A stretch of 64,000 nucleotides of DNA from Hydrurus foetidus. Lineage: Eukaryota. Both the position numbers and the translations under genes were made by a program. Positions 9,122 through 58,429 of the stretch are shown here, in pieces; within the stretch, counting starts at the first letter, position 1; each line of letters opens with the position of its first letter. The notes beneath the pieces were generated by a model. That model was not told the origin of the DNA and did not search any database. It worked only from the letters and a program-made list of their open reading frames with translations. Location of the stretch: the NCBI GenBank assembly GCA_900617105.1, contig UYFQ01000001.1, forward strand, positions 4,588,001 to 4,652,000, in the 5' to 3' direction.

Positions 9122-9883
9122 ATGGCTCAGCAAACCATACCCATACTGATGTACCACCAGGTCGACGCAGAGCCGCCAAAAGGCTCGCCGATGCGCGGGT
9201 TGGTGGTTGCGCCCAAGACATTTGCCAGACACATGGCGGCGCTTTCGGCGATCGGTTATGCGGGCAAGTCTATGGGTGACTTGGTCCCTTACCTGACCGG
9301 GGAAAAACGCGGCAAAGTATTTGGCATCACCTTTGACGACGGATATGAAAACAACCTGCGTTGTGCGCTGCCAGTGCTCAAACGCCATGGCTTCACTTCA
9401 ACTTGCTATGTGGTGGCCAACCAGGTGGGGAAAACCAACAGCTGGGACATCGAGCGTGGGGTTGTGCAGGTACCGTTGATGACGGTGCAGCAGCTTCAAG
9501 CCTGGATTGACGCGGGTCAAGAAGTCGGCTCCCACACCTTGAGCCACGCCAACGTGTCCCAATTGGCGGAAGCAGAGCAGCGCCTGGAAATTGGTGAGTC
9601 AAAGCACGCACTAGAGCAAATGATTGATCAGGTCGGTGGGGTCCAGCATTTTTGTTACCCCTACGGCGGCCTGAATGCAGGCGCTACAGCGGCAGTTAAA
9701 AGCGCGGGTTATGTCACTGCCACCACTACCGCGCGGGGTCGTGCAGTTCCGGGCCAGTCAGACGACTTGCTTTTGCCGCGTGTACTGGTAAGCCGCACCA
9801 CAACCTGGATGCAGCTGCTGCTGAAATGCCTGAGCCGATACGAAGACAAACGCGGTTCAACCCGCCGCAGCGCAGCGCCGTAG
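9122..9883 (+). CDS. polysaccharide deacetylase family protein
   Basis: IPILMYHQV, ITFDDGY, GSHTLSH, FCYPYG (NodB-type motifs). Confidence 0.9.
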   Translation: MAQQTIPILMYHQVDAEPPKGSPMRGLVVAPKTFARHMAALSAIGYAGKSMGDLVPYLTGEKRGKVFGITFDDGYENNLRCALPVLKRHGFTSTCYVVANQVGKTNSWDIERGVVQVPLMTVQQLQAWIDAGQEVGSHTLSHANVSQLAEAEQRLEIGESKHALEQMIDQVGGVQHFCYPYGGLNAGATAAVKSAGYVTATTTARGRAVPGQSDDLLLPRVLVSRTTTWMQLLLKCLSRYEDKRGSTRRSAAP

Positions 9884-9924
9884 GCCTGAAGCGCTATGAA
9901 TGACGCCAAGTTTATAAAACTGAT

Positions 9925-11064
9925 GTGATGAAACCGCAGCTGGCCGTTGTTACGCGGAACTTTGCAAAGACGAGCGGTGGCGCAGAAAGTCTGGCCGTTT
10001 CTTTGGCCATGTGCATGCTTGGCGAGTACGACATTACGGTGGTTTCCCAGTTGTTTGTACCGCCGCCCATCCCAGAAGGCGCGCACCTCAAGCACGTGCT
10101 GGTTCCCAAGCTGCCGATTGGTTCGCGCTGGATCAACCAATTGTGGTTTAGCTGGTACACCCGGCGCGTTACGCGCTCGGGATTTGACGTGGTGCACTCT
10201 TACGAAAACATCACGCACGGTAGCGTACAAACCGTCAGCGTTAAAACGGTTCATGCCAGCCTAAAGCAGCGCGGTATGAGCGCACTGCGTATTGCGCTAA
10301 GCCCCAGGCTGCTTGCCTATTTATGGCTTGAGAACAAGCGGATGCTTAACGCCACGCATCACTGCGTTTTTGTATCGCAATTTGTGCACGATGAAACCCG
10401 GCAATACATGGCCGGTTTACCCGAATGCACTGTTGTTCCGCCAGGAGTAGACATACCAAGTCAGCCAATCAGTGATTTAGAAAAAGCGGCAGCTCGCGAG
10501 CGCCTGGGGCTTCGCGCGGGTGTCATGACCGTTGGCTTTGTGGGTCATGATTTTAAAAAGAAAGGCTTGGACGTATTGCTTGCAGGCGCGGCGCTGCTGC
10601 CGTTTGACGTTCAGATAATGGTCATTGGCAAACCGGGGCAAGCGGCGCATTACGCTGATCGGGTTAAGGCACTGGGTGTGGGTAAAACTTGCCGATTTAT
10701 GGGGGTAGTGGCTGATATGCAAACGGCTTACGCCACTATGGACTGCCTGGCCCACCCCACCACGCAAGATGTATTTCCCATGGTACTGCTGGAGGCAATG
10801 GCCAGGCAAATACCGGTGCTAACAACAACTGAGCCGCACAACAACATGGGTAGTTTGCTGACTGATCAGACCAACGCGCTGTTGCTGCAAGATCCTGACG
10901 ACAGCGCAGCAGTTGCTCGTGCGCTGCGGCAGCTGCGAACAGACAAGGCACTGACAGCCAAGCTGGCACGCAACGGATTTGAGTTTGCGCAGCGGTACAG
11001 CTGGGAAGTTGCTAAAACCAAGTATTACGCGGTGTACGACAGAGCCAGGGCTTTCAAAACGTGA
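9925..11064 (+). CDS. glycosyltransferase family 4 (GT-B)
   Basis: GGAE N-terminal motif, KKKGLDVLL, DVFPMVLLEAMA, YSWE. Confidence 0.88.
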   Translation: MMKPQLAVVTRNFAKTSGGAESLAVSLAMCMLGEYDITVVSQLFVPPPIPEGAHLKHVLVPKLPIGSRWINQLWFSWYTRRVTRSGFDVVHSYENITHGSVQTVSVKTVHASLKQRGMSALRIALSPRLLAYLWLENKRMLNATHHCVFVSQFVHDETRQYMAGLPECTVVPPGVDIPSQPISDLEKAAARERLGLRAGVMTVGFVGHDFKKKGLDVLLAGAALLPFDVQIMVIGKPGQAAHYADRVKALGVGKTCRFMGVVADMQTAYATMDCLAHPTTQDVFPMVLLEAMARQIPVLTTTEPHNNMGSLLTDQTNALLLQDPDDSAAVARALRQLRTDKALTAKLARNGFEFAQRYSWEVAKTKYYAVYDRARAFKT

Positions 11065-11893
11065 CTGAATTTTCGGTCACGTAGTTTTTAAATTGGCTAT
11101 TTATATAGTCTTCAATTCGAACAAATTCACCAGTCCAAATTTCACGCAGGCGAGTCGTGTCAGCGCGCGAATACTCGGCTTCGCGCGATAGGCCAGGTTG
11201 AATTACAAGCTTTGGGAACTGCGCTTTGACCATGGCGACAAGGCTGGCGACTTTGGTTGCCACGCCCGTGCCCACATTTAGGTGAGTTGCGTTGATGTCG
11301 GTAGTAGCCAGTTTCATCACGATGGCAGCAACATCGCTAATGTGAATAAAGTCGCGCAACATGCGGCCGTCGTTATTAAGCGTAAAGGGCGCGCCAGACA
11401 AAAGCGATTTTTTGAGTTTGCTCAAAATAGAAAAGTTGTCACGTCCACCGTAAGAATTAAATACGCGCAAGACTTGATAGTCAATAGCGTTGGCCGTGCA
11501 AAACTCCGCAATCAATTTTTCGTTCAAGTGTTTTGAAATGCCGTTAATACTGATGGGGCAGCACAAGCTGTTTTCAGCCGTGGTCATGTCTTCGCCATAA
11601 ACGGCGCAGCTGCTTAAAAAGACAAATTTTTTAACGCCATGATCACGTGAAGCTTCAAGCAGCGTGGCGGTGGACATGAGGTTAGAGTTCAGAAGCTGAG
11701 TAGGCCGCAGGCTGGCAGGTGTGCGAAGGTCACTTGCGGCGTGCACCACCACGCTGGCAGACGCCAGCTTTTTATCAATATCTGCCCAGTCGTGGCGCCC
11801 GACAGGTGTCACCACAACGTGTGGGCTACTCCGGGCTTGCCGACAAAATTCGGCACCAAAATTACCTTGTGCACCCGTTAGCAAAATATTCAT
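11054..11893 (-). CDS. NAD-dependent epimerase/dehydratase family protein
   Basis: ILLTGAQGNFG, FLSSCAVYG, LRVFNSYG, RDFIHISD. The YxxxK motif reads NGISK. Confidence 0.85.
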   Translation of the reverse strand: MNILLTGAQGNFGAEFCRQARSSPHVVVTPVGRHDWADIDKKLASASVVVHAASDLRTPASLRPTQLLNSNLMSTATLLEASRDHGVKKFVFLSSCAVYGEDMTTAENSLCCPISINGISKHLNEKLIAEFCTANAIDYQVLRVFNSYGGRDNFSILSKLKKSLLSGAPFTLNNDGRMLRDFIHISDVAAIVMKLATTDINATHLNVGTGVATKVASLVAMVKAQFPKLVIQPGLSREAEYSRADTTRLREIWTGEFVRIEDYINSQFKNYVTENSVTF

Positions 11894-11952
11894 GGCCTGC
11901 CTGTTGATTTAAAAATGCGGTCGCCAACTACATTGCCCCAGCAACCAGCTGT

Positions 11953-12879
11953 TTATGCCACTAACTTGAAGTGTTTTCTGCTGAAGTCCAACCCGGTTGC
12001 AGTTTCAATCTGCCTCATCAAGTGATACTTATTTTCTTTAGGCGTTGGCTTGTAGTCTGGGTCAATCAGCAAAGTTTGTTCGGCCCCAGTCTTGAGCCAG
12101 TGCGCCACAGCTTTTGGGTGTGTGCCAGTAAATGGCGCAAGCGCACGCGGATCAAACTGGCTGTATTTGACTTGCGGCGGTGGGGTTGCCCAATACTTGC
12201 CGACTTGGTCTAATTTTTTCTGCATATCTTCATTGCGGCGAATCCAGCCGTAATGGTAAATGTGCGCATTGGCAAGTGCCGCATGTGGGTTGCGGCCCCG
12301 CTTGTGTTCTTTCATCACCAGCCAGTATTGTCCGTCGGGGGCGAAGGTGCGAATGGTGTTGCGAACCAGGCGGCACTCCCGTCGGTACCAACCCGGGCTA
12401 ATTGAGATCCAGTCGGGAGAGCCGTAGAAATGTTTGTAGTCAAACACCAAGGCTTCTACGGCCGGGTTGTCGTGATAGCGCTTCACGCTGGTACGGATCG
12501 TATCAATGTCTTGCTCATGAACGATTTCATCGCCTTCCAGGTAAAAAGCCCAGTCGCCAACGCATGAATATTGCGCAATCATTTTTTGCTGTGCATAGAC
12601 AAAGCCACGATCAGACATGCCCTCATTCCATAGCGTTTCAATAATGCGAATTTTAGGATCGCCAATGGCTTGGACTCTCGCCAATGTGTCGTCTGATCCT
12701 TTTCCTACCGCCACCACAAACTCATCAACCAGTGGCAACAGTGACCTAATCGATGCTTCAAACGGAAAGCCAAGCTCTACGCCGTTGCGAATGAAGGTAA
12801 ATCCACTGATTGAAATATGCGCTTTGACAGCGCCGTTACCGAGCGCTGGTGCACTTGGCAAATTGCTTGCTTTGGTCAT
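11953..12879 (-). CDS. glycosyltransferase family 2-like protein
   Basis: ISGFTFIRNG...SIRSLLPLVDEFVVAVGKGSDDT, WAFYLEGDE, IYHYGW. Confidence 0.78.
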   Translation of the reverse strand: MTKASNLPSAPALGNGAVKAHISISGFTFIRNGVELGFPFEASIRSLLPLVDEFVVAVGKGSDDTLARVQAIGDPKIRIIETLWNEGMSDRGFVYAQQKMIAQYSCVGDWAFYLEGDEIVHEQDIDTIRTSVKRYHDNPAVEALVFDYKHFYGSPDWISISPGWYRRECRLVRNTIRTFAPDGQYWLVMKEHKRGRNPHAALANAHIYHYGWIRRNEDMQKKLDQVGKYWATPPPQVKYSQFDPRALAPFTGTHPKAVAHWLKTGAEQTLLIDPDYKPTPKENKYHLMRQIETATGLDFSRKHFKLVA

Positions 12880-12890
12880 GTTTGTTTGTT

Positions 12891-14654
12891 TTATTGAGCT
12901 GCAAAACCAAGGCGATAAAGATGAGCGTAAGCGCCGTTTTTTGCGAGCAATTCGGCGTGAGTGCCGACCTCAAGAATTCGGCCTGCGTTCATCACTGCAA
13001 TGCGGCTGGCGTGTTGAATGGTTGACAGCCGATGCGCGATCACTATGCAAGTTCTACCCGTTGTCAGCCGTCTGATGGCAGTCTGCACGGCTTGTTCAGA
13101 TTCGGTGTCAAGTGCAGAAGTGGCCTCGTCGAGAATTAGCAGTGGTGCGTCTTTGTATAGGGCCCGAGCAATTGCCAGGCGCTGACGCTGCCCCCCTGAC
13201 AGCTGTATGGCGTTGTGACCCAACACGGTATCTATGCCTTGCGGGAGCTCGGCAATCAGCGCTGATAAGTTGGCCGCTTCCAGGCACTGCACTGCTTTGT
13301 GCTGGTCGTATGCTTGGCCCAACGACACGTTAAGACCAATGCTCGTGTTGAGCATCACGACGTGCTGGCTGACCACCGCGAACTGGGACCGCAGCGATGC
13401 TAGGTTCCACTGCGAAACAGATACTTCGTCCAGGCTAATTTGGCCGGCGCTGGCCTCTACAAAACGCGGCAGTAAATTGGCCAATGTGGTTTTGCCAGAA
13501 CCAGAACTGCCCACCAAGGCCAGCGTTTCACCCGGCTTGATGGTCAAGTTAATGTTGTCAAGAGCGAGCGCTCCGCCTATCTTGTAAGAGGCATTGACGT
13601 TGGAAAATTCGATTGCCCCCCGCGCACGGTCGACCGCAAAGCTCCCGCCCATTTCGTCGGCCACATCATCAATCAAGTCGAGTCCACGCTCGAGCGCAGC
13701 CAGCCCGCGGGTAATTGGCGTGGCACCATCGGACAGACTTTTGATAGGCGCAATCAGCAGCAGCATTGCGGTTACAAAAGCGACAAATCCGCCGACGGTG
13801 GTTGTGTTTTCTGAGCTTTGCAGCAGCGCCGTTGATATGACCGCGGACAGCGCTAACGCGGCCAGCAGTTGCGTGATGGCGCTCATGCCGGCGTAGGCAA
13901 CGGTGGCTTTTATTGACAACCTGCTGAGCAATTGACTCACTGTGTGAAAACGCTGCGCTTGGGTGGGTTGTGCGCCGTGAAGACGAATATCGCGATGCGC
14001 CAGTACGTTTTCTTCTACGACGTAGGCCAGGTTGTCGGTAGCAACCTGGCTTTGCTTCGTAAGCCGGTAAAGCCTTTTGGTCAGTAACTGAATCACCAGC
14101 GCCACAGCTGGAAACAACAGGGAAACCAGCAGCATGAGCTTCCAGTTTAAAAACAACAAATAGGCAATCAAGGCAATCAGCGTTAGAAGGTCACGCGCAA
14201 GTTTTAGCAGTGCGTTCATCAGCATGGCAGAGCCGTTGAACACTTCGTAGACAACGGTATTGGCCATGGTGCTCGATGACAAGTTTTCAAACAGCGCCAA
14301 GCGGGACGTCAGCAGCTTGTCAAACATGGCGGTGCGCATGGCCAGCATGCCGTCATTGGTTACTTTGGCCAATGCATATTGCGCTAAAAACCCAGACACT
14401 CCCCGCACCGTGAATAGCAAAATCAGCGCAAGCGGAACCAGCCAGAGGTTAAACGAGTCCTTTTGAAAGCCGCGGTCCAGCAGGGGCTTGAGCAAAGCGG
14501 GAATAAACGGCTCGGTAATTGCCGCTGTGACCGTTGCGCCTACGGCCAGCACCCAGGCGCCACGAGAGTGGCTGAAATAAGGGCAAATACGTTTTAGCTT
14601 GCTGCGCAGTGATTTAGCGGGCAGGGTTAAAGCGCTGGCGTTTAAGTCGGTCAC
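12891..14654 (-). CDS. msbA: lipid A export ABC transporter (permease/ATPase)
   Basis: N-terminal TM domain, GSSGSGKT, LSGGQRQRLAIARALYKDAPLLILDEATSALD. LPS gene context. Confidence 0.88.
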   Translation of the reverse strand: MTDLNASALTLPAKSLRSKLKRICPYFSHSRGAWVLAVGATVTAAITEPFIPALLKPLLDRGFQKDSFNLWLVPLALILLFTVRGVSGFLAQYALAKVTNDGMLAMRTAMFDKLLTSRLALFENLSSSTMANTVVYEVFNGSAMLMNALLKLARDLLTLIALIAYLLFLNWKLMLLVSLLFPAVALVIQLLTKRLYRLTKQSQVATDNLAYVVEENVLAHRDIRLHGAQPTQAQRFHTVSQLLSRLSIKATVAYAGMSAITQLLAALALSAVISTALLQSSENTTTVGGFVAFVTAMLLLIAPIKSLSDGATPITRGLAALERGLDLIDDVADEMGGSFAVDRARGAIEFSNVNASYKIGGALALDNINLTIKPGETLALVGSSGSGKTTLANLLPRFVEASAGQISLDEVSVSQWNLASLRSQFAVVSQHVVMLNTSIGLNVSLGQAYDQHKAVQCLEAANLSALIAELPQGIDTVLGHNAIQLSGGQRQRLAIARALYKDAPLLILDEATSALDTESEQAVQTAIRRLTTGRTCIVIAHRLSTIQHASRIAVMNAGRILEVGTHAELLAKNGAYAHLYRLGFAAQ

Positions 14655-15931
14655 GCTATCGCTCCAGCCGGGTTTTCGCTTGTCACATTTCTAACGGCGA
14701 TCGAGGCGGGCCTTTGTATTCCAAGCGCCAGCATCAATCCGAAAGCTACACAGAAAAAGTCGCCAATATGGGCATCGTACAGCGCTGAATTAAAGAGGCA
14801 GGTGACCGCAAAAGCTGCCAGCACAGACTGGGTTGCTCTGGCAAACGGGGGGTCCATTCGCAAGCTGTCTCTAAGTATGCAGGCCATCAGGCCGATAAAT
14901 AGCAACACACCCGCCACACCAAGTTGCACGCCCCACTGAAGGTATTCCTGGTGTGTGTTGGCATTGGTTGTCACATTCACGTAGGCCGGGTTTTGTTCGC
15001 GCTGCCTAATGTCGTACTGGTGGTTCCAGTTGCCTAGGCCGAAGCCTTTAACTGGTTCCATCGCAATCATTTGCAAGGCGCGGCGCCACAAGCTTAGCCG
15101 GATACCTGATGACGTGTCGGCTTGGTGAGTTGTAGAAAACAATTGCACCTCAGTTACTACCGCACTCAAGCGTTTATTAACCTTCGCCGAACTTAACGAT
15201 AAAACCCCAACCAGGACGAACGGTAAAACCACCACCGCTAACCGCAGTTTTTTTGGCAATTGCCACATGATTGCCAGCGACAGCAAGGCAATGGCAACTA
15301 AATGCCCGGTTCTGCCGATCAGCACAAACAGAACGTTCACCATTGCCAGCGCCGCAACGGTGATAGCCAAACCGCGCGTCCACTTGTTGGGCGCCAGCCC
15401 GCGAAGGTGCCAAAACAAGGCAGCGGTTACTGAACTCATGATGCTTTGGTCAAGGTACGCCGAGAACACGCTGAAATGCGTTAAAGCCATGTTAGACGTA
15501 GCCCACGGCACGGGAACGCCGAAGTAAAGCGCCCAAGAAGCCAGCAGCAATGCGGTTTGCGTAAACAAAAAAGCGGCCAGCGCGTAAAGGCCCTCAGCGC
15601 GGGTGCGAATAAGGGCCATCAAGACAACGATAGTTAGCAGTTTGCCGTACTTGCCCAGCGAATTGAGTCCCTCTGCTATCGGCCCGTTTGTCCAAAGCAG
15701 GCTGGCGCTGCAAATGCCCAACATCACCAAGACAGCAACGGGAACGTAACTTTGCGTCAACATTTGCCGAGCAGGCTGGGCGCGGCTAATCTGTAGCAAG
15801 CTGAGCAAACTGAAAATAGCAGTTACAAAAAGCAATAACTTTGCTACGCTGATCAGCGCAATGGATAGCCCCACCGAGGCTGCCGCGAAGCAAATCACGG
15901 GGACTCGCAGATTGAATTTTGGTGTGCGCAA
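14651..15931 (-). CDS. O-antigen ligase (WaaL/Wzy_C) family membrane protein
   Basis: Multiple TM segments, GRTG, TSSGIRLSLW, GFGLG, THQEYL...GV. Confidence 0.8.
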   Translation of the reverse strand: MRTPKFNLRVPVICFAAASVGLSIALISVAKLLLFVTAIFSLLSLLQISRAQPARQMLTQSYVPVAVLVMLGICSASLLWTNGPIAEGLNSLGKYGKLLTIVVLMALIRTRAEGLYALAAFLFTQTALLLASWALYFGVPVPWATSNMALTHFSVFSAYLDQSIMSSVTAALFWHLRGLAPNKWTRGLAITVAALAMVNVLFVLIGRTGHLVAIALLSLAIMWQLPKKLRLAVVVLPFVLVGVLSLSSAKVNKRLSAVVTEVQLFSTTHQADTSSGIRLSLWRRALQMIAMEPVKGFGLGNWNHQYDIRQREQNPAYVNVTTNANTHQEYLQWGVQLGVAGVLLFIGLMACILRDSLRMDPPFARATQSVLAAFAVTCLFNSALYDAHIGDFFCVAFGLMLALGIQRPASIAVRNVTSENPAGAIA

Positions 15932-46745: not shown

Positions 46746-49268
46746 GTGCCGTCCAACTACTCTGACCACTACAAGCTAGCCCTGCAAGCGCGGAATCTGT
46801 TTACAGATCGCGCCTGCGAGGTTTTGCCCGTCATTGGCAAGGCTATTTCAGACTGTCTTACGGATCTAGTCAACAAGCCCGGCAGTGCCAGAGATATGCA
46901 ATACCACCGGGACGCTCAACTGGCGTTTCAGGCGGGGGGTGCTAGCTGGCGAACCGGCTTGCTGTCGGTGTGGCGAACACCAGATTCGACAGCCTCCAGT
47001 TCGGGATCAGCGCAATTTGGTCTTGAAACTACTCTCTTTGAGCTGGTTAATAACGACGTGATGGACGATCAAATCCTCGCGTCGAGGCTGGCCTTGCGGC
47101 TGCTGGATTTTGCTAGCTGGGAGCTCAACGATTTGCGCTTGCGCATTCAGCACCTGGAGCAAGTTGCTGAGCTGCCCAAAAAAGACATTTTGCGGCCTGA
47201 AATTCTGGCCCGTCTGGTTATTGAGCAATGGGTAGCGGCGAAGCTGCCGCGCCCAACCTGGGCGTTGGTACAAGACTTGGTGCAAACGCTGCTGGCCGAG
47301 CACTTGCTCGTGGCGTACCACGCAGCCAATGAGTTTTTGGTATTGAACGGCGTGATGGCTGAAATCGATTTGCGGCCTCTTGTCAAGCGCTCGCTGTCGT
47401 CGCCCACCGACAAAGTCGATGCGCTAAAACTGTCCGTAGCTGGTCGGCCAAATGGTTCAGGTTCAGGTTCAAGTTCAAGTTCAAGTTCAAGTTCAAGTTC
47501 AAGCAGGCAAGCCATGGGCGCGAGCGCGGGTTCCAATAACCGCGGTGGCGCATCGTACGGCGCGGGTAACGGCGCGCCGGGCGGCAGCCTGATACGGCGT
47601 GTAGGCGGAGGAAGTTTTTCAAACAGCGACTCCGGCGGCGACTCCAACAGCGATAGGGGCGCGCGCGCAAGCTATGGTGGAAATCGGCCAAGGCAAGGCG
47701 ATTCCATGGGTCATTCGCAGCAAGGTAGTCCGCAGGAAGAAACCCGGATGCAGACTGCGACCACGCCACTGGCGCGAGCCCGCATGCGTGCCCAAGGGGT
47801 GATGGGCACCCTAAAACGGTTGCTCACCAATCAGGTTGCTGGATTTCACGATACACGAGCCTCGCGACCTTCGCATCAGTTGGTTCAAGCCATGAACGGC
47901 GCCGCAAGGTCAAGTTCAAGCGGCTCCAGCCAGACGCTTCAAATGGATGCGCCTGGCCAGTTTTATGGTTCGGTTCACGTTGAGCAGGCTGCCAGTGCCA
48001 TGCGCCAGCGCACGGCTGAGCTTAAAAAAGCCGCCACCAGCTCAAGTGAAAAAGCAACTATTGAAATTGTTGCGTTGATGTTTCAGGCCATCTTGGCGGA
48101 AGATCGCATTCCTGCGGCAATTCGCGTGTGGTTTGCGCGGCTCCAAATGCCAGTGCTGCGTTTGGCGCTATCAGAGCCCGAGTTTTTTGGCTCGCTTGAG
48201 CACCCGGCTCGCCAACTGATTGACCGCATGGGGTCTTGCGTGCTCGGCTTTAACGCCGACATATCGGGCGGCGCGCTTGAAGTTGAGGTCAAGCGTGTGG
48301 TGCAAGTGATCGAGCAGTACCCTGAAACCGGCAGGCGCGTGTTTCAGCTGGTGTATGACGAGTTTCAAAAATTTCTGTCCAAGTTTTTAAGTGAAACCGG
48401 CGGCGCTGCGCGTGCTGTGTCTGTCGCGCAGCAAATGGAACAAAAAGAAACGATGGCGATTCAGTTCACCATCGAGATGCGGAACATGCTCAAAGACATT
48501 CCGGTGCGCGACGAGATTCGGGAATTTTTGTACAAAGTATGGGCCGAGGCGCTGGCTATTTCTGCCATGCGCAGTGGTCCGCAACATGAAGAAACGCTGG
48601 TGTTAAAGCGTGCCTCGGCTGACTTGGTGTGGGCCTCCAGCGCCAAGCCCAATCGTGCAGACCGTGCAAAAGTAATTGCAGATTTACCCAAACTGCTGCA
48701 ATTGTTGCGCTCTGGTATGACCATGCTGGGACTGGACGCAGCCGCTCAAGACGAGCACATCAAAATCATCAGCGACACGCTGGCAGATGCTTTTTTAAGT
48801 AAAAACAGTGCGATTGACCCAGCGCGCATTGATCTAATGGCCAAGCGCCTGGTGAATTTGGAGGACTACCTGTCTGACGAAGACATCGGCGACTTGCCGC
48901 TGGACACCGACGCGTTGGTGATGATGTTGGGCATTGATACCACCGACATAGAGGTGATTTCTGACGGTGGCAGCCAGCCAAGTGACGCCATGCGTGCCTG
49001 GGCGGGCGAGCTGCAGTTGGGTGCGTGGTTCAGCCTGGACCATAACGGTCGCGTGGCACACGTGCAGTTTGCGTGGCGCAGTGACCGCAAGCAACTTCAC
49101 CTTTTTGCTTCAAGTGAAGGTAAAAATTACTTGATTCAGGCGCGGCGACTGGCGGCGTATCTGCAGGCGGGCCTGCTGGTGCCGACAGAAGAAGAAGCAT
49201 TGACCGTTCGCGCCACCCGCGAGGCACTGGTCAAACTTGAGGCTAACCCAGAGCGGCTATTGGGCTAG
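46746..49268 (+). CDS. DUF1631-like protein with Gly/Ser-rich insertion
   Basis: ARLQMPVLRLAL...FF....HPARQLIDR helical core and a C-terminal LGAWF...LHLF domain. Family assigned from memory of the motif. Confidence 0.7.
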   Translation: MPSNYSDHYKLALQARNLFTDRACEVLPVIGKAISDCLTDLVNKPGSARDMQYHRDAQLAFQAGGASWRTGLLSVWRTPDSTASSSGSAQFGLETTLFELVNNDVMDDQILASRLALRLLDFASWELNDLRLRIQHLEQVAELPKKDILRPEILARLVIEQWVAAKLPRPTWALVQDLVQTLLAEHLLVAYHAANEFLVLNGVMAEIDLRPLVKRSLSSPTDKVDALKLSVAGRPNGSGSGSSSSSSSSSSSSRQAMGASAGSNNRGGASYGAGNGAPGGSLIRRVGGGSFSNSDSGGDSNSDRGARASYGGNRPRQGDSMGHSQQGSPQEETRMQTATTPLARARMRAQGVMGTLKRLLTNQVAGFHDTRASRPSHQLVQAMNGAARSSSSGSSQTLQMDAPGQFYGSVHVEQAASAMRQRTAELKKAATSSSEKATIEIVALMFQAILAEDRIPAAIRVWFARLQMPVLRLALSEPEFFGSLEHPARQLIDRMGSCVLGFNADISGGALEVEVKRVVQVIEQYPETGRRVFQLVYDEFQKFLSKFLSETGGAARAVSVAQQMEQKETMAIQFTIEMRNMLKDIPVRDEIREFLYKVWAEALAISAMRSGPQHEETLVLKRASADLVWASSAKPNRADRAKVIADLPKLLQLLRSGMTMLGLDAAAQDEHIKIISDTLADAFLSKNSAIDPARIDLMAKRLVNLEDYLSDEDIGDLPLDTDALVMMLGIDTTDIEVISDGGSQPSDAMRAWAGELQLGAWFSLDHNGRVAHVQFAWRSDRKQLHLFASSEGKNYLIQARRLAAYLQAGLLVPTEEEALTVRATREALVKLEANPERLLG
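47454..47501 (+). repeat. hexanucleotide microsatellite (GGTTCA)3(AGTTCA)5
   Basis: Direct reading. Encodes GSGSGS followed by poly-Ser. Confidence 0.95.
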
Positions 49269-51196: not shown

Positions 51197-52498
51197 TTAT
51201 GCACTCACTGACGCTGCGGCGTATTTTCGCCACTGCTGCGGCACCAGCTCAAACAAGGGTGTCGGTTCACGCTTGAGGTTTTGCTTAACGCTGCCTTTAT
51301 CGACAGTCGGTGTGTTGCCGCTCAAGTCGACTTGCGCAAGCTGCTGCATCCAGACCAGGTCGATTTGCCCGTTGGGTGCTGGCCGTGAAAAGATCAGTTC
51401 CAACATTTTTTTTGCCGGAACGCTCCCCTGATTTTGCGCCAGTTGATACAAGCGGATAGCCTCGGTGTAATTAGAAGGCACGCCTTGGCCCCGGTGGTAA
51501 CGCTGCGCCTGCGCGAAGTTGTCTGCAGCCGATTGCGGTTTGACCGCAACTGCGCTTGCGCTGCGACTTGGGGGCGGCAGCCGCGCTGCATTTTTAACGC
51601 GCTCGGCCACTACTGTGGAATTGATGGCTGCAGCGGCAGACTTGGGCGCTGCGCTTTTGAAAAAAACAAGTGCTTCGGGCAACTCGTTTAAAAACACGCT
51701 GTCCAAGCCCAGCTCAATTTTTGCATTGGTATCTCCCTGCTGCGCCGCCCTGGCAAGTAACTGCCGATTTTGCAATGGCGAGGGCGCCTGGCCTGCTGCG
51801 CTGAGTACGGGTTGTGTAGTCTCAAGCGGCGCCAGGCGTGACTGCATTAGCCACTGCAAGTACAGCGCACGCGGCGCATCGACACTGCGCAGCAGCTCTA
51901 CCCACTTGCCCGCAGCGGCAGGGTTAGCGGTCGCTTTGCAGCCTTCAATTTCACACCATGCCAAACCGGCTGGCGCTAGCGGTTCACCGAGCAACTGCGC
52001 CCGTTCAAACCACACAGCCGCATCAGATGTGTTCAGAACTGAGCAAATGCCGTGCAGTGTCAGCAAACCCATTTGCCAGGCCGCATTGGCTTGCAAGCGC
52101 TGTTGGCGGGCTTTTGAAAGTTGTTGATGTTCAGGCAACACCGTGCCGGAAGCGGAGGCCTTCAGTCGCTCCAGTTGATTCGCTGCGCTAAATTCGTTCG
52201 GATTTGCCCGCCTGAGCGGATCTGGCGCGCAGGTGGATGTGCCCATATCAGGCGGCGCAAGCCCGTACGTACTTCTAAGCGCCAATGGAGATATTTCCAC
52301 AGCCTGCGCGCGGGTTCTGCGACTATTCGCGACCCCAGCCGACGGCTGAATTTGAATGGGCGCAACCGAATAGTCTGGCGTTTGCAATGGTGCGGCCGGC
52401 AGGCTGCGCGCGTTGGCCTGCACGGCTGGCGCACACAGTGAAAGCACGACAGTCGATGTAGCGGCTAGTACCAAACAATTGAGTTGATGGAAGTGCAT
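51197..52498 (-). CDS. secreted Sel1-like repeat protein
   Basis: Signal peptide (...APAVQA) and Sel1-like units such as AAVWFERAQLLG, AAQQGDTNAKIELG, YHRGQGVPSNYTEAIRLYQLAQNQG. Confidence 0.8.
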   Translation of the reverse strand: MHFHQLNCLVLAATSTVVLSLCAPAVQANARSLPAAPLQTPDYSVAPIQIQPSAGVANSRRTRAQAVEISPLALRSTYGLAPPDMGTSTCAPDPLRRANPNEFSAANQLERLKASASGTVLPEHQQLSKARQQRLQANAAWQMGLLTLHGICSVLNTSDAAVWFERAQLLGEPLAPAGLAWCEIEGCKATANPAAAGKWVELLRSVDAPRALYLQWLMQSRLAPLETTQPVLSAAGQAPSPLQNRQLLARAAQQGDTNAKIELGLDSVFLNELPEALVFFKSAAPKSAAAAINSTVVAERVKNAARLPPPSRSASAVAVKPQSAADNFAQAQRYHRGQGVPSNYTEAIRLYQLAQNQGSVPAKKMLELIFSRPAPNGQIDLVWMQQLAQVDLSGNTPTVDKGSVKQNLKREPTPLFELVPQQWRKYAAASVSA

Positions 52499-52583
52499 TT
52501 TTGCTCTCCAGTTGGCCAGCCGATACTACCTTTTTGTCTGCTGCCGCGGCGAAAGTCGGCTTAAACCAGGCAGCCGCCGCCCC

Positions 52584-54353
52584 CTATTTAGCGGGTGCTC
52601 CCGGCGGCGGGATCGCGCCGGTGGGTGCTGCCGGTTTAGGCCCCACCAACCATTGAATCTGTGAGCTTGTATAGGCTTGTTTGCCCACTGCCGAGTCAAA
52701 CGCCTGATCAACGGTTGCCAAACCTGACACCCCTTTGAGGGTGACCAACGCTGTGCCGCCCAAAATCGCGGGGATCTTGTCTGCCACGTCCGTATCTGTA
52801 GCGTAGCACCCTACACGTTCAGTACCGGGACTGGTGGCGTCCATGATGAAGCCTGGCGTGGGGCTCATCCAGTCCGGGATGCGAATAGCGTTGTTGGCTG
52901 AAATGAGCGCACTGGGGTTAGTGGCGTTGGGTAGCAGCCGCATGACGGTACCCCCCGCTTCATGCAAAAAGCAGTACATATAAGACGCCCGAGACAACGC
53001 GGCAGACAAGAAGATCTGCTCGCCCACTTCAAACGCAGGCCTGCCCACCAGTGGGTTTTCCAGTTGCAGCTCTAAACGCCTCGGAAGCGCTGGTGCCCCC
53101 AAGGCGGCTTTAAGGTACGGGCTGCCCGGCACGGCTCTTGTACCGGCGATTGGTGCCATCGTTGACGTGCCATCTGCAACACCGATAGCGCTGCCCCCAG
53201 CTGACCAGCCGACTTGTAACAACTGCCCATTGGCGTTCAGCGATACAAAATCGCGCAGCGCACGCTCATAGGTTGCAAAGTCAACAATGCCCGTCACCGC
53301 CAAACCTGAATCAGCCTGAAACTTGCCCAACGCAGTGACTAACTCTGGGCTGCGCTCGTCAATAGTTTTGCCGTCATTGGCCAAATACCCTTGGCTGACC
53401 ATTGAGCGCTGCACCAGTTTGTTGTGCACCAGTGGCGAGCCTTCGTCAAACCAGTCACGCATCTGCCGCTGGAAATCTGGATGCGTTTGCTCCAGCGTCA
53501 GGCATTGCCAGTACGGTACACGCGCCCATTTTCCGACCATTTCAATCATGCCCAAATCAATCAACGTACGCAGCGCACCGCCTGCGCCGATAGAGTAGTC
53601 TCGGCCCACATTAAACTTCACCCCGTAATCGCCGATTCGGCCCGCCAAGTCCAATCCTTGTCCCGAGCCGCCAATGATGACTTCATTGGCAGAGTCCAGG
53701 CCAGGGATCAGTGTGCGGGTGCGAAAGTCCCCCAAGTGCAGCTCTAACCCAATCACAGTGGCATTTTTGCTTTGGCTGTAGCCCGTGTCCAACCTGCTGG
53801 CCGATGTGCCCACATCAAAGCGGTTGTTGATCACATTTTGGTCAACATAAGCAATGGCACCCGACACGTAAAGCGCCGGGCGCTGCAATTGCATCTGGTT
53901 GTTGTTGAGCAAAATCGTGGTCAGGTTTTGCACCGTGTCTTGCCGCGCAATATCGACCTCGTAGTCAACGTACCTGAATGCGTGGCTGAGTCGGGACATC
54001 TGCGACAGCGCGGTGATGATCATGTCTTTGGCAGCGGCGGGCACCTTGCTCGAAAAGTCGGGTATCGATTTGCTCGTGATCAGCGTGGTGGGCAGTTGCG
54101 ACTCACGCAGCATGCGGTCCATGCACATCAGCGATTCAGAAAAACTCGACAGCGAGCGGGTCGGCCGAACAACCGGGCGATTCGTTGCGTAAGCGTAGGA
54201 CTGAAACTCCGCGTCTTTACGCGGGTTCATGGGCATCGCGCAACCCGATAAAAACAGCACCACCAGCATCGCCATGCAAACCCAAAAAGACGGTATGCGC
54301 CCCAACTGCCTTTGAAGAGCGGTTGAATGCGTGGTCAGTGTGTTGTTTCTCAT
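52584..54353 (-). CDS. lipoprotein: CsgG/HfaB-like domain + peptidoglycan-binding domain + DUF4384-like domain
   Basis: LSGC lipobox. ITSKSIPDFSSK, KDMIITALSQ, SGAIAYVD and IGLELHLGD resemble the CsgG/HfaB pattern. ALGKFQADSGLAVTGIVD fits PG_binding_1. FEVGEQI...YMYCF...LLPN is DUF4384-like. Confidence 0.65.
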   Translation of the reverse strand: MRNNTLTTHSTALQRQLGRIPSFWVCMAMLVVLFLSGCAMPMNPRKDAEFQSYAYATNRPVVRPTRSLSSFSESLMCMDRMLRESQLPTTLITSKSIPDFSSKVPAAAKDMIITALSQMSRLSHAFRYVDYEVDIARQDTVQNLTTILLNNNQMQLQRPALYVSGAIAYVDQNVINNRFDVGTSASRLDTGYSQSKNATVIGLELHLGDFRTRTLIPGLDSANEVIIGGSGQGLDLAGRIGDYGVKFNVGRDYSIGAGGALRTLIDLGMIEMVGKWARVPYWQCLTLEQTHPDFQRQMRDWFDEGSPLVHNKLVQRSMVSQGYLANDGKTIDERSPELVTALGKFQADSGLAVTGIVDFATYERALRDFVSLNANGQLLQVGWSAGGSAIGVADGTSTMAPIAGTRAVPGSPYLKAALGAPALPRRLELQLENPLVGRPAFEVGEQIFLSAALSRASYMYCFLHEAGGTVMRLLPNATNPSALISANNAIRIPDWMSPTPGFIMDATSPGTERVGCYATDTDVADKIPAILGGTALVTLKGVSGLATVDQAFDSAVGKQAYTSSQIQWLVGPKPAAPTGAIPPPGAPAK

Positions 54354-54426
54354 GGTCGTCTCTTGGTGTGTGATTCGGGTGCGAAAAAGCGCTTGCGCTA
54401 GGGCATGGCGATCAGAAAGTAAGACC

Positions 54427-54849
54427 TTAATTGCAGATGTTGACCAGGTCGCCTCTGAGCACTACAACTTGCGGCGCCATCTTGAACCCTGCGCCGGGAC
54501 GTATGCCGGGGGCAACACTCACGCTTCCAATTGATTGAGTGCAGACCGTAGACGACGCATTGGTGTTGACTGAATTGATGACATCTTTTTCGGTCAGGAT
54601 GTCGCCTTTATTGCCTGAGAAGGCTTTGGCCTCATAGCGCGAAATCCGGGCTTTTTGCCACTCAGGTATGTCCGCCGTCGGGTTGATGTAGCCCGAGCGA
54701 GGCGCGGTGCCGAACGGCTGGCCTTGAATAACAACTTTGGAAGCGATGCGAACCGGATCTTCGCCGGGGGCATTTTGGGCCGCGGCAAGTGTGCTGACCA
54801 GCACAGTGCACAAACCAAGCACACGGAAAGAGTAGCAGCGTAGCAACAT
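54427..54849 (-). CDS. small secreted hypothetical protein (140 aa)
   Basis: GGAG RBS, ATG 54849, signal peptide ending LAAA. Mature C-terminus VCTQSIGSV...QVVVLRGDLVNICN. Confidence 0.75.
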   Translation of the reverse strand: MLLRCYSFRVLGLCTVLVSTLAAAQNAPGEDPVRIASKVVIQGQPFGTAPRSGYINPTADIPEWQKARISRYEAKAFSGNKGDILTEKDVINSVNTNASSTVCTQSIGSVSVAPGIRPGAGFKMAPQVVVLRGDLVNICN

Positions 54850-54865
54850 GATGGGTCTCCACAAG

Positions 54866-54921
54866 AAAAACAAAAAAAGAGTCAGGCCACTTTGCACGTG
54901 TCAAAGCGAGCTGACCCTTTT
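54866..54921 (-). terminator. intra-operonic rho-independent terminator after the repeat-protein gene
   Basis: Minus strand GGGTCAGCTCGCTTTG-acacgtg-CAAAGTGGCCTGACTC (15 of 16 pairs including G-U) followed by TTTTTTTGTTTTT. Confidence 0.8.
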
Positions 54922-54943
54922 CTAAACAAGTTTTAACCAGTGC

Positions 54944-55666
54944 TCAATGACGAGGGGCGTTGCATCCAGGGCATGGGTCTTGTGGTTCATTGCAAGCATC
55001 GTTAGATGCAATGTTTTGAATCGCATGGCTGCGATAGCCCTTCGCCAAATTGGTGATCGAGCCGCCTGTGACGTAGGTGGTTTGGGTAGAAGTACCGGCC
55101 ACCGTCACATCGCCAAAGTTGGACGAAAGATTTTGCGTGGCACGCGCATGGCTGCCAGACGCAGTGTTAGACACAGTAACGTCTGTCAGGCCCACCGTTT
55201 GCGCCGACGTGCCACTGATTCGGATGCCATCGCCGTTATTGCTGGCCAGGTTTTGCAGCGCAGTCGCGTCGCCGCCAGTGGCCTTGTTGTTTAAAGTTGA
55301 ATTGGTCATGCCGGTGTATTGCGTTGACTCACCGCTCATGCTCACTGTGACCCTGCCAGCGTTGGACGAGACGTTCTGATTTGCAAAATCGTCCTTGCTG
55401 ACCGATTCGTTGTTCATTGCGCCGCCGTTTGCCACAGTTGTTTGACTCGAAATGCCGTTAACGGTGATCTTGCCCGCGTTACTTGAAACGTTTTGCATAG
55501 CAGTGTTGTTTGCATTTGACTGATTTGACACTGTCAGATTGGTAAACGAAGCAAGCTGCGTTGACGTGGCACCAGACGCAATGACGATTTTGGCTGGGCT
55601 AACGGGACCAGCAGCCATGGCTGCGGCGGCAAATGCGCTGAGCGCGAAGAATGCAAGTTTTTTCAT
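54944..55666 (-). CDS. secreted five-repeat Q/N/S/T-rich protein with C-terminal CxxC (candidate functional amyloid / beta-solenoid subunit)
   Basis: Start MKKLAFFALSAFAAAAMA at 55666. Five ~39-42-aa repeats each ending AxQN(V/L/I)(S/A)SN. Tail ACNEPQDPCPGC. Confidence 0.8.
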   Translation of the reverse strand: MKKLAFFALSAFAAAAMAAGPVSPAKIVIASGATSTQLASFTNLTVSNQSNANNTAMQNVSSNAGKITVNGISSQTTVANGGAMNNESVSKDDFANQNVSSNAGRVTVSMSGESTQYTGMTNSTLNNKATGGDATALQNLASNNGDGIRISGTSAQTVGLTDVTVSNTASGSHARATQNLSSNFGDVTVAGTSTQTTYVTGGSITNLAKGYRSHAIQNIASNDACNEPQDPCPGCNAPRH

Positions 55667-56206
55667 GGTGAGTACCCCAAAAACAAAGTTAAAAATTTGC
55701 TTTAGGTTCCAAGGCTCCTGCAGGGGTCTTTGAACCGTCAGCGCTGTAGACATTGGTTGAGTGGGCCCCCTTTTTTGATAGGGCTTCGCTTTTTCTTTGT
55801 CTGGGACGAAGTTTGTGCCTGTGTTTGCGCGCCGCCAATCCCCGTTTCGGGCTACCCTTTTGATGCGGGGTTTTTGCAAAATTCGCTTGTGTCTGAATGC
55901 GTATTTTGCTCAGCAGAAAGAGCCGTGCCTGGCGGCTAAATTCGATCGAAAATCTCGCAATTTATCGCGGTAGTTTCAAAATATTAATTTTGTAAAGTTT
56001 TGTGTCTGGTGTGCGCTACCGCACACCTTTATTCGTCCATTCGGGGTACAAACAACGCAAGTCGGCACAAATCGACGTGACTTGTCACATCGATTGCAGA
56101 GGCAGGCAGCAAACAACCACTTTTGATTGTTGGTTTTTGCGTCTGCAATGGTGTTTTGTGTATCCACAAAATACGCGCTCATGTTGGATATTTCGGAGAA
56201 GAAAAC

Positions 56207-57034
56207 ATGCTCAGTACGTACACCACAACCGACGAAGCTTCGGTAACAAGTAAAGCTCGCGCCAATCAGGCCGCGGCGATGCCTCCCATGGGCCAGCAAA
56301 TGGAATCACTGCATCAAACATCGTTAACCCCGCGTAACGGGGCGACTTTGTCATGGCCACCGTTTTTGGTGGGGCAGGAAGCCAGGCCCGTACGCGTAGT
56401 GCTGATTGACGACGACGCCAACATTCGCCACGTGATTTCAAGCGAATTAATGGCTGATTTGCGCTGCAACCTGGTAGGCCAAGGGGGCAGCATGCGTGAA
56501 GGCCGCCGGCTAATTTCGAACGGTGAGTTTGATGTGATGTTGGTAGATTTGAATTTGGGCGATGGCAATGGCTTCGAACTGATTGAGCACCTCAAGACGG
56601 TCCGGCCAATGGCTGAGGCGATTGTTATTTCGGCGATGGAAGACGAGCAACATGCACTTCGCGCGTTTGAACTGGGCGCTACCGGGTACCTGGTTAAAAA
56701 CTCGTGGTTTGGTAATTTTTCACAAGCCGTGTTGCAGGTGGTCAATGGTGGCGCGTCCATCACGCCCAACCTGGCCCGGCGCTTGTTGCACAGGCTAGAC
56801 CACAGCCACGCGGATACAGGTCAGCACGACGCCGCCCCAAAAAAAGGGCTGTCAGAGCGCGAACACGCCGTGCTAAAAATGGTGGCAGCGGGCTACACCA
56901 GCTGCGAGATCGCTCTGCGCCTGGCCATCAGCGGCCTGACAGTCAATACCCACATCAAAAACATTTACCGCAAACTGCAAGTGAAAACTCGGGCGCATGC
57001 GGTCAGCTCGGCACTGCAACGTGGGCTGCTTTAG
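56207..57034 (+). CDS. NarL/FixJ-type response regulator (REC + LuxR HTH)
   Basis: VVLIDDD, DVMLVDLNLGDGNG, GATGYLVK, LSEREHAVL...TVNTHIKNIYRKL. GGAG RBS before ATG 56207. Confidence 0.92.
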   Translation: MLSTYTTTDEASVTSKARANQAAAMPPMGQQMESLHQTSLTPRNGATLSWPPFLVGQEARPVRVVLIDDDANIRHVISSELMADLRCNLVGQGGSMREGRRLISNGEFDVMLVDLNLGDGNGFELIEHLKTVRPMAEAIVISAMEDEQHALRAFELGATGYLVKNSWFGNFSQAVLQVVNGGASITPNLARRLLHRLDHSHADTGQHDAAPKKGLSEREHAVLKMVAAGYTSCEIALRLAISGLTVNTHIKNIYRKLQVKTRAHAVSSALQRGLL

Positions 57035-57046
57035 CCGAGTGAATCC

Positions 57047-58429
57047 ATGGTCGTAGCGATTGAGCTCTTTTTTGCTCTGGCCAGCTTGTTGCTGGGCGCT
57101 GCCGCGTTAAAGGGCTCTATTGGCGCTTGGCGCCTACAGAGTCACCCGGTCGACTACGCCATGCGGATTTTGGCGTGCTTGTGGATGCTCTATGTGCTGG
57201 TCTCGGTGGTGCAGCTGTTTTTGGCAGGCAACTCACGGATTGATTTATCGCTGTTGGAAGTGGCTGCCGATATTGTCTATGCAGTTTTATTGGGCGCGGT
57301 GGCATTTTTCCTGGTAACCACATCTGGCAGCGTGCGACCCTGGGTGTTGTTTATCGCTGCGCTGCAGGTGCTCGGTGAAATCGGGGCCGCCATTTGGCTT
57401 AACTTTGGTGAAGCGTCGACGCCGATTGCGTTTTGGATGTGGACGGCGTTGAATTTAACTGGCGCAACCGCGGTGACGGGCTCGATCATTCGGCAGGTTC
57501 GCCACACCCACAGTCGACGCAGCTGGCTGGCGCTGGCTGCTTGCGCCATGGGACTCGGTTTGTGGCTGTACGAAGCTGCCGTGCCAGACAATTCGCACAG
57601 TGGGCTGCCCGTTGCATCGCACCTGTACGCCTTGTTTTTATTCGTGATCTGGAAGCTGGTGTCACTCAGTCCTGATGCAGACCGCGCGCTGGCAAGCGCC
57701 GGGACACTACCGGTGGGGACGTCTGCCTTTCAAAGTTTGAACAGCGTCAGCACAGACGATGACTTCATTGCGCTGGCACTGCGCGCCGAGCGCCAGCGAA
57801 TAGCCTATGAGTTGCACGACAACATCGGCTCGCAGTTAGTCAGCGTTTTGTTTTCGATGCAGGCTGCTGAACAACCGCAAAAGCGGTTGGTCATGCTGTC
57901 GCTGGAGCAATGCCTGGCTGATCTAAAAATGACAGTAGATGCTTTAGACAGCTTCACTGAAAACGTCACGCAAGCGCTCGGTCGGTTGCGCTACCGGGTT
58001 CAACCCGCGCTTGACAGGCAACGCACCCAAATGCGCTGGGATGTTGAAATTTCTGCTGAACTGGAGGCCGTTCATGGCGTGTATGCGCAGCAGGTATTGC
58101 GTATTGCGCAGGAGAGTATTTCTAATGTTATGCGCCATGCCAAAGCAAGTTCTGTAAGGGTCACTTGCCGCTTTGAGCGGGAGTTCAGTCACCTGCTGCT
58201 AGAGGTGAGCGACAACGGCGCAGGTATGGCGCCGGGGAAAAACAAGCGCTCGGCCGGGCGCGGAATAGAGGGCATGAAAAGACGGGCTGCGGCTGTGGGC
58301 GGCTTTCTGCGTATTTCAAACCCAAGCGGCGGCGGGACTTGTGTGCGCTTAACGCTGCCGCTGGCGCATGTCAAAGTGTGGCCAGAAAGCGCTTTGCCAA
58401 CGGAAGTAAAAGAAACCGCCGCCGCCTGA
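57047..58429 (+). CDS. membrane-bound sensor histidine kinase (HisKA_3 type)
   Basis: About 6-7 hydrophobic segments, ERQRIAYELHDNIG H-box, QESISNVMRHA, DNGAG, GRGIEGM. Confidence 0.92.
   Translation: MVVAIELFFALASLLLGAAALKGSIGAWRLQSHPVDYAMRILACLWMLYVLVSVVQLFLAGNSRIDLSLLEVAADIVYAVLLGAVAFFLVTTSGSVRPWVLFIAALQVLGEIGAAIWLNFGEASTPIAFWMWTALNLTGATAVTGSIIRQVRHTHSRRSWLALAACAMGLGLWLYEAAVPDNSHSGLPVASHLYALFLFVIWKLVSLSPDADRALASAGTLPVGTSAFQSLNSVSTDDDFIALALRAERQRIAYELHDNIGSQLVSVLFSMQAAEQPQKRLVMLSLEQCLADLKMTVDALDSFTENVTQALGRLRYRVQPALDRQRTQMRWDVEISAELEAVHGVYAQQVLRIAQESISNVMRHAKASSVRVTCRFEREFSHLLLEVSDNGAGMAPGKNKRSAGRGIEGMKRRAAAVGGFLRISNPSGGGTCVRLTLPLAHVKVWPESALPTEVKETAAA

Follow-up and report, generated by a model that had tools for sequence, protein, structure and literature searches.

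The window analysed here is the 64,000-nucleotide (nt) stretch at positions 4,588,001 to 4,652,000 of contig UYFQ01000001.1, deposited under Hydrurus foetidus (GCA_900617105.1), and our subject is a cluster of six genes within it (Table 1). Four are named here REP, SMALL, LIPO, and SEL, and the other two encode a response regulator (RR) and its sensor kinase. All six open reading frames (ORFs) were verified at the coordinates and strands tabulated, so that the layout given in an initial annotation, four co-oriented genes with a divergent regulator and kinase, is correct. The same annotation placed export signals on all four co-oriented genes; these are seen by eye and by hydropathy only, and SMALL falls under the hydropathy threshold. 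The REP start codon, ATG at 55666, was chosen by homology; the RR frame opens at 56123, and the ATG at 56207 is its likely start, judging from homologue lengths.

Table 1. Features of the gene cluster, in window coordinates
Feature	Position	Strand	Remarks
REP, secreted repeat protein	54944..55666	-	240 amino acids; likely fibre subunit; no Pfam/NCBIfam family
Hairpin + U-run between REP and SMALL	54872..54923	-	folding z -3.2; putative role only
SMALL, two-Cys protein	54427..54849	-	140 amino acids; candidate adaptor/anchor; no Pfam family
LIPO, CsgG/HfaB-fold lipoprotein	52584..54353	-	589 amino acids; from fold models and Pfam
SEL, Sel1-repeat protein	51197..52498	-	433 amino acids; N-terminal hydrophobic segment; putative role only
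Candidate site GGTAnCC-N6-GnGATTGG	55834..55857	-	~180 nt before REP; from conservation across upstream regions
Candidate site ending ACTACC	55969..55986	-	~305 nt before REP; from conservation across upstream regions
NarL/LuxR-type response regulator (RR)	56207..57034	+	Response_reg and GerE matches
HisKA_3 sensor kinase	57047..58429	+	HisKA_3 and HATPase_c; ~6 hydrophobic segments

Linkage was followed over 80 genome loci, the top-scoring ones of 103 found with LIPO. Gene presence and order were kept at every locus where they could be tested (REP at 75/75, SMALL at 73/73, and SEL at 72/72); the loci are kin and not independent, and hence no statistic is claimed for these counts. Presence was counted in an even draw of 301 genomes of the family Comamonadaceae, in which REP and SMALL occurred in the same 32 genomes (~11%). 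The operon is carried by, among others, Acidovorax, Polaromonas, Comamonas, Diaphorobacter, and Ottowia; strains with names that have it include the non-pathogenic, cultured Diaphorobacter nitroreducens DSM 15985, Simplicispira metamorpha DSM 1837, and Polaromonas jejuensis NBRC 106434. The gene for the pore, that is, LIPO and its homologues, was present in 52 of the 301: the 32 genomes with REP and SMALL, 19 that have only a pore of a distant clade, and one in which a contig ends just upstream; the close pore clade consists of the 32 plus this last genome. Gene content, gene order, and co-occurrence are thus established, and the cluster is a genuine and conserved operon.

The REP protein contains five Q[NS]x[SA][ST]N motifs, at residues 58, 97, 138, 178, and 217, a spacing of 39–41 residues. 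None of 10,000 shuffled sequences had two or more copies, a comparison that is post hoc because the motif was taken from the same sequence. The five repeats reported at the outset therefore stand, but the description as Q/N-rich does not hold for glutamine: the mature protein is rich in S, T, N, A, and G, with 12.6% N and only 5.4% Q. Charged and aromatic residues are few, and the repeats fill nearly the whole chain. A homology search yielded 56 REP homologues, and a later one with a mixed alignment returned only seven proteins; neither Pfam nor NCBIfam assigned REP to a family, and among the matches listed for the 55 aligned homologues there was no relevant Pfam entry. The structural model (predicted local distance difference test, pLDDT, 85; predicted template modelling score, pTM, 0.79) is all-beta, with four strands per repeat and no helical caps, and REP is predicted to be an uncapped beta-solenoid.

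Across homologue repeats, columns holding N, Q, and A are invariant, and the proteins vary by whole repeat units. Over 66 loci, one REP had two repeats, 31 had three, four had four, 22 had five, three had six, and five had seven; the largest count found was eight. By loose patterns, the mature chain opens on the latter half of a repeat in 65/66 REPs, and the final motif lies at most 32 residues from the C-terminus in 65/66, so that the two ends appear complementary. Tandem pairs of REP paralogues occur in 5/80 loci (L040, L057, L062, L063, and L067, all Polaromonas-type, each with two three-repeat copies in a pairing like CsgB/CsgA or FapB/FapC), and several distant loci have two to four copies. 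At L077:6433-7322, from a metagenome-assembled genome (MAG), REP is present as two overlapping ORFs, reflecting either a frameshift or an assembly error.

Fold comparisons of REP with known amyloid subunits gave little. FapC, whose cross-section is a Greek key, was the first row of a Foldseek search (E 0.057, template modelling score 0.13–0.18) and was not among the best 50 rows of a second fold search; against CsgA, the model gave Z 5.5 at a root-mean-square deviation (rmsd) of 8.6, and an absent match in these searches does not prove that folds differ. At the sequence level, two REP profiles found no match to CsgA among PDB chains and no FapC chain at E<=10.

The lipoprotein is composite. 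PG_binding_1 (residues 314–363) and DUF4384 (Pfam 441–521, within a sandwich of ~423–575) are both above the Pfam cut-off. The latter is modelled as an immunoglobulin-like sandwich with Z 7–8 to PKD and macroglobulin domains. The Pfam scan of the window protein gave no CsgG match and left the N-terminal half unassigned. Relatives of this half number 560 at E<=0.001 (counted as 50%-identity representatives). A single-sequence search of the PDB found nothing, and a profile found CsgG only at E 0.015. The N-domain (~66–285) was compared by structure: with an AlphaFold2 model of the protein built from 145 sequences (pLDDT 84), the first 10 Foldseek rows were all CsgG (best E 3e-12, probability 1.0), and an aligner run over the entire library also placed CsgG first (Z 15.2, rmsd 4.3, 181 residues aligned). 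Pfam CsgG was matched at E<=1e-3 by 9/94 LIPO homologues, five of them above cut-off, the 94 being drawn from the 145 aligned homologues plus a few short ones. Two long hairpins show hydrophobic/polar alternation at residues 179–192 and 234–251 across the 145 homologues, and the N-domain is accordingly predicted to be a CsgG fold whose two amphipathic hairpins would lie in the membrane. Of 143 aligned homologues, 136 retain the lipobox Cys38, and Ala is the commonest residue at +2; two other cysteines, Cys77 and Cys284, are invariant, suggesting a disulfide. The three parts attributed to this protein from its sequence were therefore recovered, two by Pfam and the CsgG-like one by fold.

The Sel1 match in SEL scored 30.0 bits, just below cut-off, and all nine homologues tested were above it, in agreement with the original naming; the protein is likely a periplasmic scaffold or chaperone. 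SMALL consists of a conserved helix followed by a C-terminal segment bounded by two cysteines, which are invariant across homologues, as expected of the Cys-pair protein first described; a Pfam scan of 60 SMALL homologues found no family. In complex predictions made without alignments, REP (22–236) with SMALL gave a median score of 0.34, versus 0.02 for the best of three controls, with at least 51% of contacts agreeing between runs and a partner pLDDT of at least 44. The mark set for such scores was reached by 51/78 solved pairs and 2/108 mismatched pairs, and scores of 0.60 or lower held only five of the solved pairs yet all four mismatches that passed; the prediction lends an interaction between the two proteins weak support and shifts the odds only a little. 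In a test of whether SMALL contains one copy of the REP repeat, no locus-specific covariation was found over 14 hand-picked loci (p 0.44), although 31/2000 shuffled-REP sets reached the score.

Related operons extend beyond the close clade. The loci of 17 of the 19 genomes with distant pores (27–33% identity) were fetched, and a secreted repeat protein lies upstream of the pore in 12. Its period is 32–35 residues in 11 of these, the twelfth being recognised by profile match, and a SMALL-like gene is visible in 10. In a draw across the phylum, the pore was found in 19/401 genomes, and the Comamonadaceae REP profile matched six. Fourteen loci from outside the family were examined: 10 encode repeat proteins of 35–38-residue period, eight of these together with a SMALL homologue, and two are cut by contig ends. 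These outside proteins are often only two repeats long and occur as two to four tandem paralogues; chains of two such repeats are unlikely to be stable alone. The distant SMALLs are clear homologues (hhalign 97%), and for the distant REPs an in-register alignment spans 73 columns (hhalign 51%, E 1.5e-4), with 10 of 19, many of them close kin, beating all 300 shuffles. By source name, pore homologues belong to Magnetococcales, Caenispirillum, Cellvibrionaceae, and Limnobacter, and genes for OmpA-like and Sel1/TPR proteins often follow the distant pore genes. Among individual loci, L135-L146 are distant-clade operons that often contain OmpA-like and DUF2807-like genes, with a downstream gene resembling an extracytoplasmic function (ECF) sigma factor in place of the two-component pair (read by eye, the families being confirmed elsewhere). 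At L116:9692-11707, four tandem two-repeat secreted proteins of ~100–160 residues directly precede the pore and no SMALL was seen, and at L115 a different protein, of 169 residues, occupies the SMALL position.

The initial annotation placed an intrinsic terminator after REP. A hairpin followed by U7 is indeed present (-26.6 kcal/mol, z -3.2, with 0/200 shuffles folding as well), but a simple terminator scan did not list it, and few loci beyond those of the nearest Polaromonas retain a clear U-run; in the majority of the remaining relatives there is a GC-rich, foldable stretch without one. It is likely either a leaky terminator or a stabiliser of mRNA that would yield more subunit than machinery.

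Two sequence elements upstream of REP are candidate regulator sites, the first of which may alternatively be a promoter. GGTAnCC-N6-GnGATTGG is present in 43/52 non-redundant REP upstream regions (42 on leave-one-out) and the element ending ACTACC in 39/52 (37 on leave-one-out), counts that are inflated by kinship among the regions. Both lie at a steady distance from REP and score highly in the window; a third element, found in 24/52 regions, is below threshold there. An ACTACC-type element also occurs ~200 nt before the RR orthologue of L159, which lacks the operon.

The assignment of the regulator and kinase made at the outset is borne out by Response_reg, GerE, HisKA_3, and HATPase_c matches and six hydrophobic segments in the kinase. 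That they are the operon's own is only partly so. Of 62 loci that allowed the test, 61 have RR next to the operon (divergent in 58, downstream in three) and one lacks it, and the kinase was found in 51/57; an RR search covering 160 of the 301 family genomes gave matches at E<=1e-35 in 27/33 operon genomes. However, close RR orthologues (at least 56% identity) were also present in 7/108 genomes with no pore match, and distant versions of the operon have, by eye, ECF-sigma-like genes nearby instead. The pair is thus a frequent but not a private regulator. Of the operon-free RR orthologues, one sits, by eye, a short way upstream of a Tad/Flp pilus-like operon and one next to a Ser/Ala-rich secreted protein. 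RR orthologues or relatives stand beside Tad/Flp pilus-like genes at L158:1-6524 and L163:453-5589 (also by eye); this suggests that the RR family controls several surface-attachment loci. At L154:5196-7126, an orthologous RR/kinase pair adjoins a Ser/Ala/Gly-rich, low-complexity secreted protein and two more secreted proteins, of which the two scanned had no Pfam family. The Acidovorax regulator AcrR was considered as a counterpart of RR and, going by its description and not by sequence, set apart: it lies near flagellar genes and does not seem to resemble RR (PMC7060138).

From these data, we favour, as the probable reading, an export system resembling that of curli, anchored to the cell wall and serving a new family of fibre subunits; the cluster likely builds an amyloid-like surface fibre of a new kind. 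The fibre-export interpretation advanced in the initial annotation is, to this extent, partly supported: of the observations named there as refuting it, two were looked for and did not occur, as the lipoprotein is predicted to have the CsgG fold and the genes do co-occur in other genomes. REP and SMALL would cross the inner membrane by Sec, and LIPO would reach the outer membrane by the Lol route, forming a ring there that may be tethered to the cell wall through its fused peptidoglycan (PG)-binding domain. The C-terminus of CsgG faces the periplasm (PMC12822426), so that a PG-binding domain in this position would reach the wall. DUF4384 and SEL may act as a periplasmic cap or chaperone that replaces CsgE/CsgC and holds or feeds unfolded REP, which would pass through the LIPO pore and then stack end to end on SMALL or on the fibre tip, giving a putative cross-beta, amyloid-like surface polymer. 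SMALL could be the adaptor joining pore and fibre, which in curli is the job of CsgF/CsgB; the hairpin after REP would provide surplus subunit, and the divergent NarL/HisKA_3 pair would act at the conserved upstream elements. Uncapped, open-ended solenoids are described as polymerising by beta-sheet augmentation, and curli as showing both whole-unit repeat variation and complementary open ends (PMC10192328). It is quite possible, though a little short of probable, that the system is a further independently evolved class of functional amyloid, defined by four-strand repeats of 32–41 residues, two to eight per chain, a disulfide-closed one-turn adaptor, and a wall-anchored CsgG-type pore, and distributed in Comamonadaceae and, by source names of pore homologues, in Magnetococcales and other alpha- and gammaproteobacteria.

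Several observations weigh against such a fibre, and some of them favour other explanations. The window has a single REP gene, and so no separate nucleator paralogue. The pore family is not tied to REP-type cargo: five of the 17 distant family loci (L147-L151) encode an unrelated secreted cargo and neither REP nor SMALL, two loci outside the family (L112 and L114) show no repeat protein, and second pore copies in three genomes lie behind an ORF of 1190–1400 amino acids. The C-terminal segment of SMALL looks, by eye, like one turn of a REP repeat, but hhalign gave this a probability of 4.5% (E 0.009, and E 0.32 for the distant sets), and between 4 and 455 of 500 shuffles scored as well, so that a repeat-like turn in SMALL is a lead only and not statistically supported.

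The cargo proteins of L147-L151 are ~220–360 residues long, four contain cysteine, and the two scanned had no Pfam family; they are possibly a second cargo class of the pore family. The second pores (L117-L119) are without DUF4384 and follow a protein of 160–177 residues with a SMALL-like helix as well as the 1190–1400-residue ORF, which has no Pfam family; Sel1 and OmpA-like genes come next. The variety of secreted cargo at some distant pore loci would suit an operon that exports a soluble factor, such as a signal, lectin, or antagonist, and no structure at all. We find this scarcely credible for the window, as REP matched no enzyme or toxin family in Pfam or NCBIfam and its repeat-filled chain, with few charged or aromatic residues, is ill suited to such a role.

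The fold of LIPO is not confined to amyloid exporters. Its model also matched non-amyloid rings (PelC, Z 11.6; FlgT, 10.7; TraT, 10.2), and the core fold is common to PelC, FlgT, TolB-N, and LptE; moreover, the PG-binding, Sel1, and OmpA-like partners are periplasmic. A PelC- or FlgT-like ring could thus join the outer membrane to the wall, with REP acting inside the envelope and never exported. This is highly improbable given the two long hairpins with alternating hydrophobic faces and an aligned span that is longer for CsgG (181 residues) than for PelC and FlgT (117–137).

The ends of REP raise another alternative. A tail with at least two cysteines is present in 64/66 REPs (CxxC in 38/66); it is modelled at low confidence (pLDDT 43–64) and could block stacking. 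REP might be a folded, non-polymerising beta-solenoid adhesin or surface-coat unit that the pore displays singly or as a short rod, capped by the Cys tail and SMALL; the weak REP-SMALL prediction could reflect such a cap. The best fold matches of REP were adhesins and tail proteins of the common beta-solenoid type (5nxk, Z 8.3, rmsd 3.2, 133 residues aligned; 8egr, Z 8.1), but the search tool notes that a Z of ~8 is common among repeat proteins. The distant homologues, moreover, have two repeats and no tail, and CsgG is described as passing unfolded chains that fold upon stacking (PMC10192328). We regard a non-polymerising adhesin as decidedly unlikely.

Finally, the closest characterised sequence relative is HfaB, which serves a polysaccharide anchor, and NCBIfam HfaB was matched more often among LIPO homologues (27/40) than was Pfam CsgG (9/94). 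In a holdfast-like anchor, short REP/SMALL complexes resistant to sodium dodecyl sulfate would sit on the pore and tether a polysaccharide adhesin or matrix, with the wall-anchored ring bearing the load; the PG-binding fusion and the OmpA-like genes of distant loci suit load bearing, and HfaA and HfaD form amyloid-like complexes exported by HfaB (10.1101/2022.07.20.500906). An ESM Atlas search gave unnamed clusters only, plus a weak pointer to HfaD from its language model (score 0.82). However, the HfaB matches are weak, none exceeding 39 bits where the cut-off is 300, and the window LIPO itself had no match to HfaB (NF037935). HfaA and HfaD were not matched at E<=1 in 21 REP/SMALL-type proteins, nor in any of five operon-bearing relatives searched genome-wide (completeness 81% for one and 99% or more for the others), while the Caulobacter control was positive. 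No polysaccharide genes lie beside the locus, a result that covers its surroundings and not synthesis genes across the genome. An abundant polymer subunit would also better explain why repeats change regularly by whole units and why a hairpin follows REP, and we consider an anchor of this kind unlikely, while preferring an exported fibre.

The operon is flanked by housekeeping-type genes, namely a serA-like dehydrogenase, DUF494, DUF1631, and secDF, and DUF1223. Its guanine-plus-cytosine content is about that of the flanks, and REP was absent from the plasmids and viral contigs searched; there is thus no sign of a recent mobile island. An Rfam scan of the window found no RNA family, and promoter-consensus matches there were only at chance level. 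One 12-kb Logan contig covers the region without difference and may be the source of this DNA; among loci with a name, the closest comes from a Polaromonas MAG, whose LIPO is 95% identical. Elsewhere in the window, positions 9122-15931 hold a polysaccharide/lipopolysaccharide cluster (deacetylase, glycosyltransferase, epimerase, ABC transporter, and O-antigen ligase), 35 kb off the operon and with no sign of linkage to it, and 46746-49268 encodes an 840-residue DUF1631 protein that contains an extended poly-Ser/Gly insert and weakly matches the PacR family.

No description of the operon, and no paper pairing DUF4384 with CsgG, was found in the full-text literature, DUF4384 being named in seven papers whose titles all point to other subjects; most subscription journals lay outside the search for the operon, and operon tables of surveys could list its genes. 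Surveys using hidden Markov models place curli or Fap operons in ~4% of species (PMC12822426), and would miss this system because REP matches neither profile. If the interpretation is true, the operon encodes a candidate matrix fibre of freshwater and wastewater bacteria, CsgG-type pores would be shown to take unrelated cargo, and a new beta-solenoid geometry as well as pore variants would become available for materials and nanopore work. The system is directly testable in cultured strains.

The system does not belong with curli, Fap, or the holdfast anchor. The initial annotation saw no csgE, csgF, csgB, fapF, or fapD homologue, and none appeared in the Pfam and NCBIfam scans of the locus. 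With the holdfast anchor (HfaA, HfaB, HfaD, and HfaE; NF037934-6), it shares a predicted CsgG-like lipoprotein accompanied by non-curlin secreted partners, but LIPO carries a C-terminal wall-binding fusion. In the Fap system (FapA-F), the FapF barrel and the FapD C39 peptidase have roles of their own, and FapC ends in CxxC; neither a FapF-type barrel nor a C39 peptidase was found by Pfam or NCBIfam in the six genes and five neighbours, the exporter here being CsgG-like. FapC (PDB 9u4u) is described as having a repeat of 38–39 residues with conserved Asn and Gln, like REP, but nearly always three of them (PMC12392863), whereas REPs have two to eight and no long linkers.

Curli (CsgA, CsgB, CsgE, CsgF, and CsgG; PDB 6l7a, 6lqh, and 4uv3) is in turn set apart by its repeats, which are ~23 residues long (PMC10192328) as against ~39 residues, modelled as four strands, in REP. 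Curlin_rpt (PF07012) was absent from REP and, among the families listed, from its 55 homologues, and Pfam recognised neither CsgE nor CsgF among the proteins of the locus or the 60 SMALL homologues; all three were absent from the five genomes (0/5), the controls, for curlin E. coli, being positive. Moreover, the pore here is fused to PG-binding and DUF4384 domains, and SMALL and SEL have no curli counterpart. What the two systems share is the overall design: a lipoprotein with the CsgG fold and membrane hairpins, as predicted for LIPO; a signal-peptide-bearing protein with N/Q-ladder repeats of variable number, predicted to be an uncapped beta-solenoid; and an adjoining LuxR-type regulator, which in this operon is one half of a cognate regulator-kinase pair.

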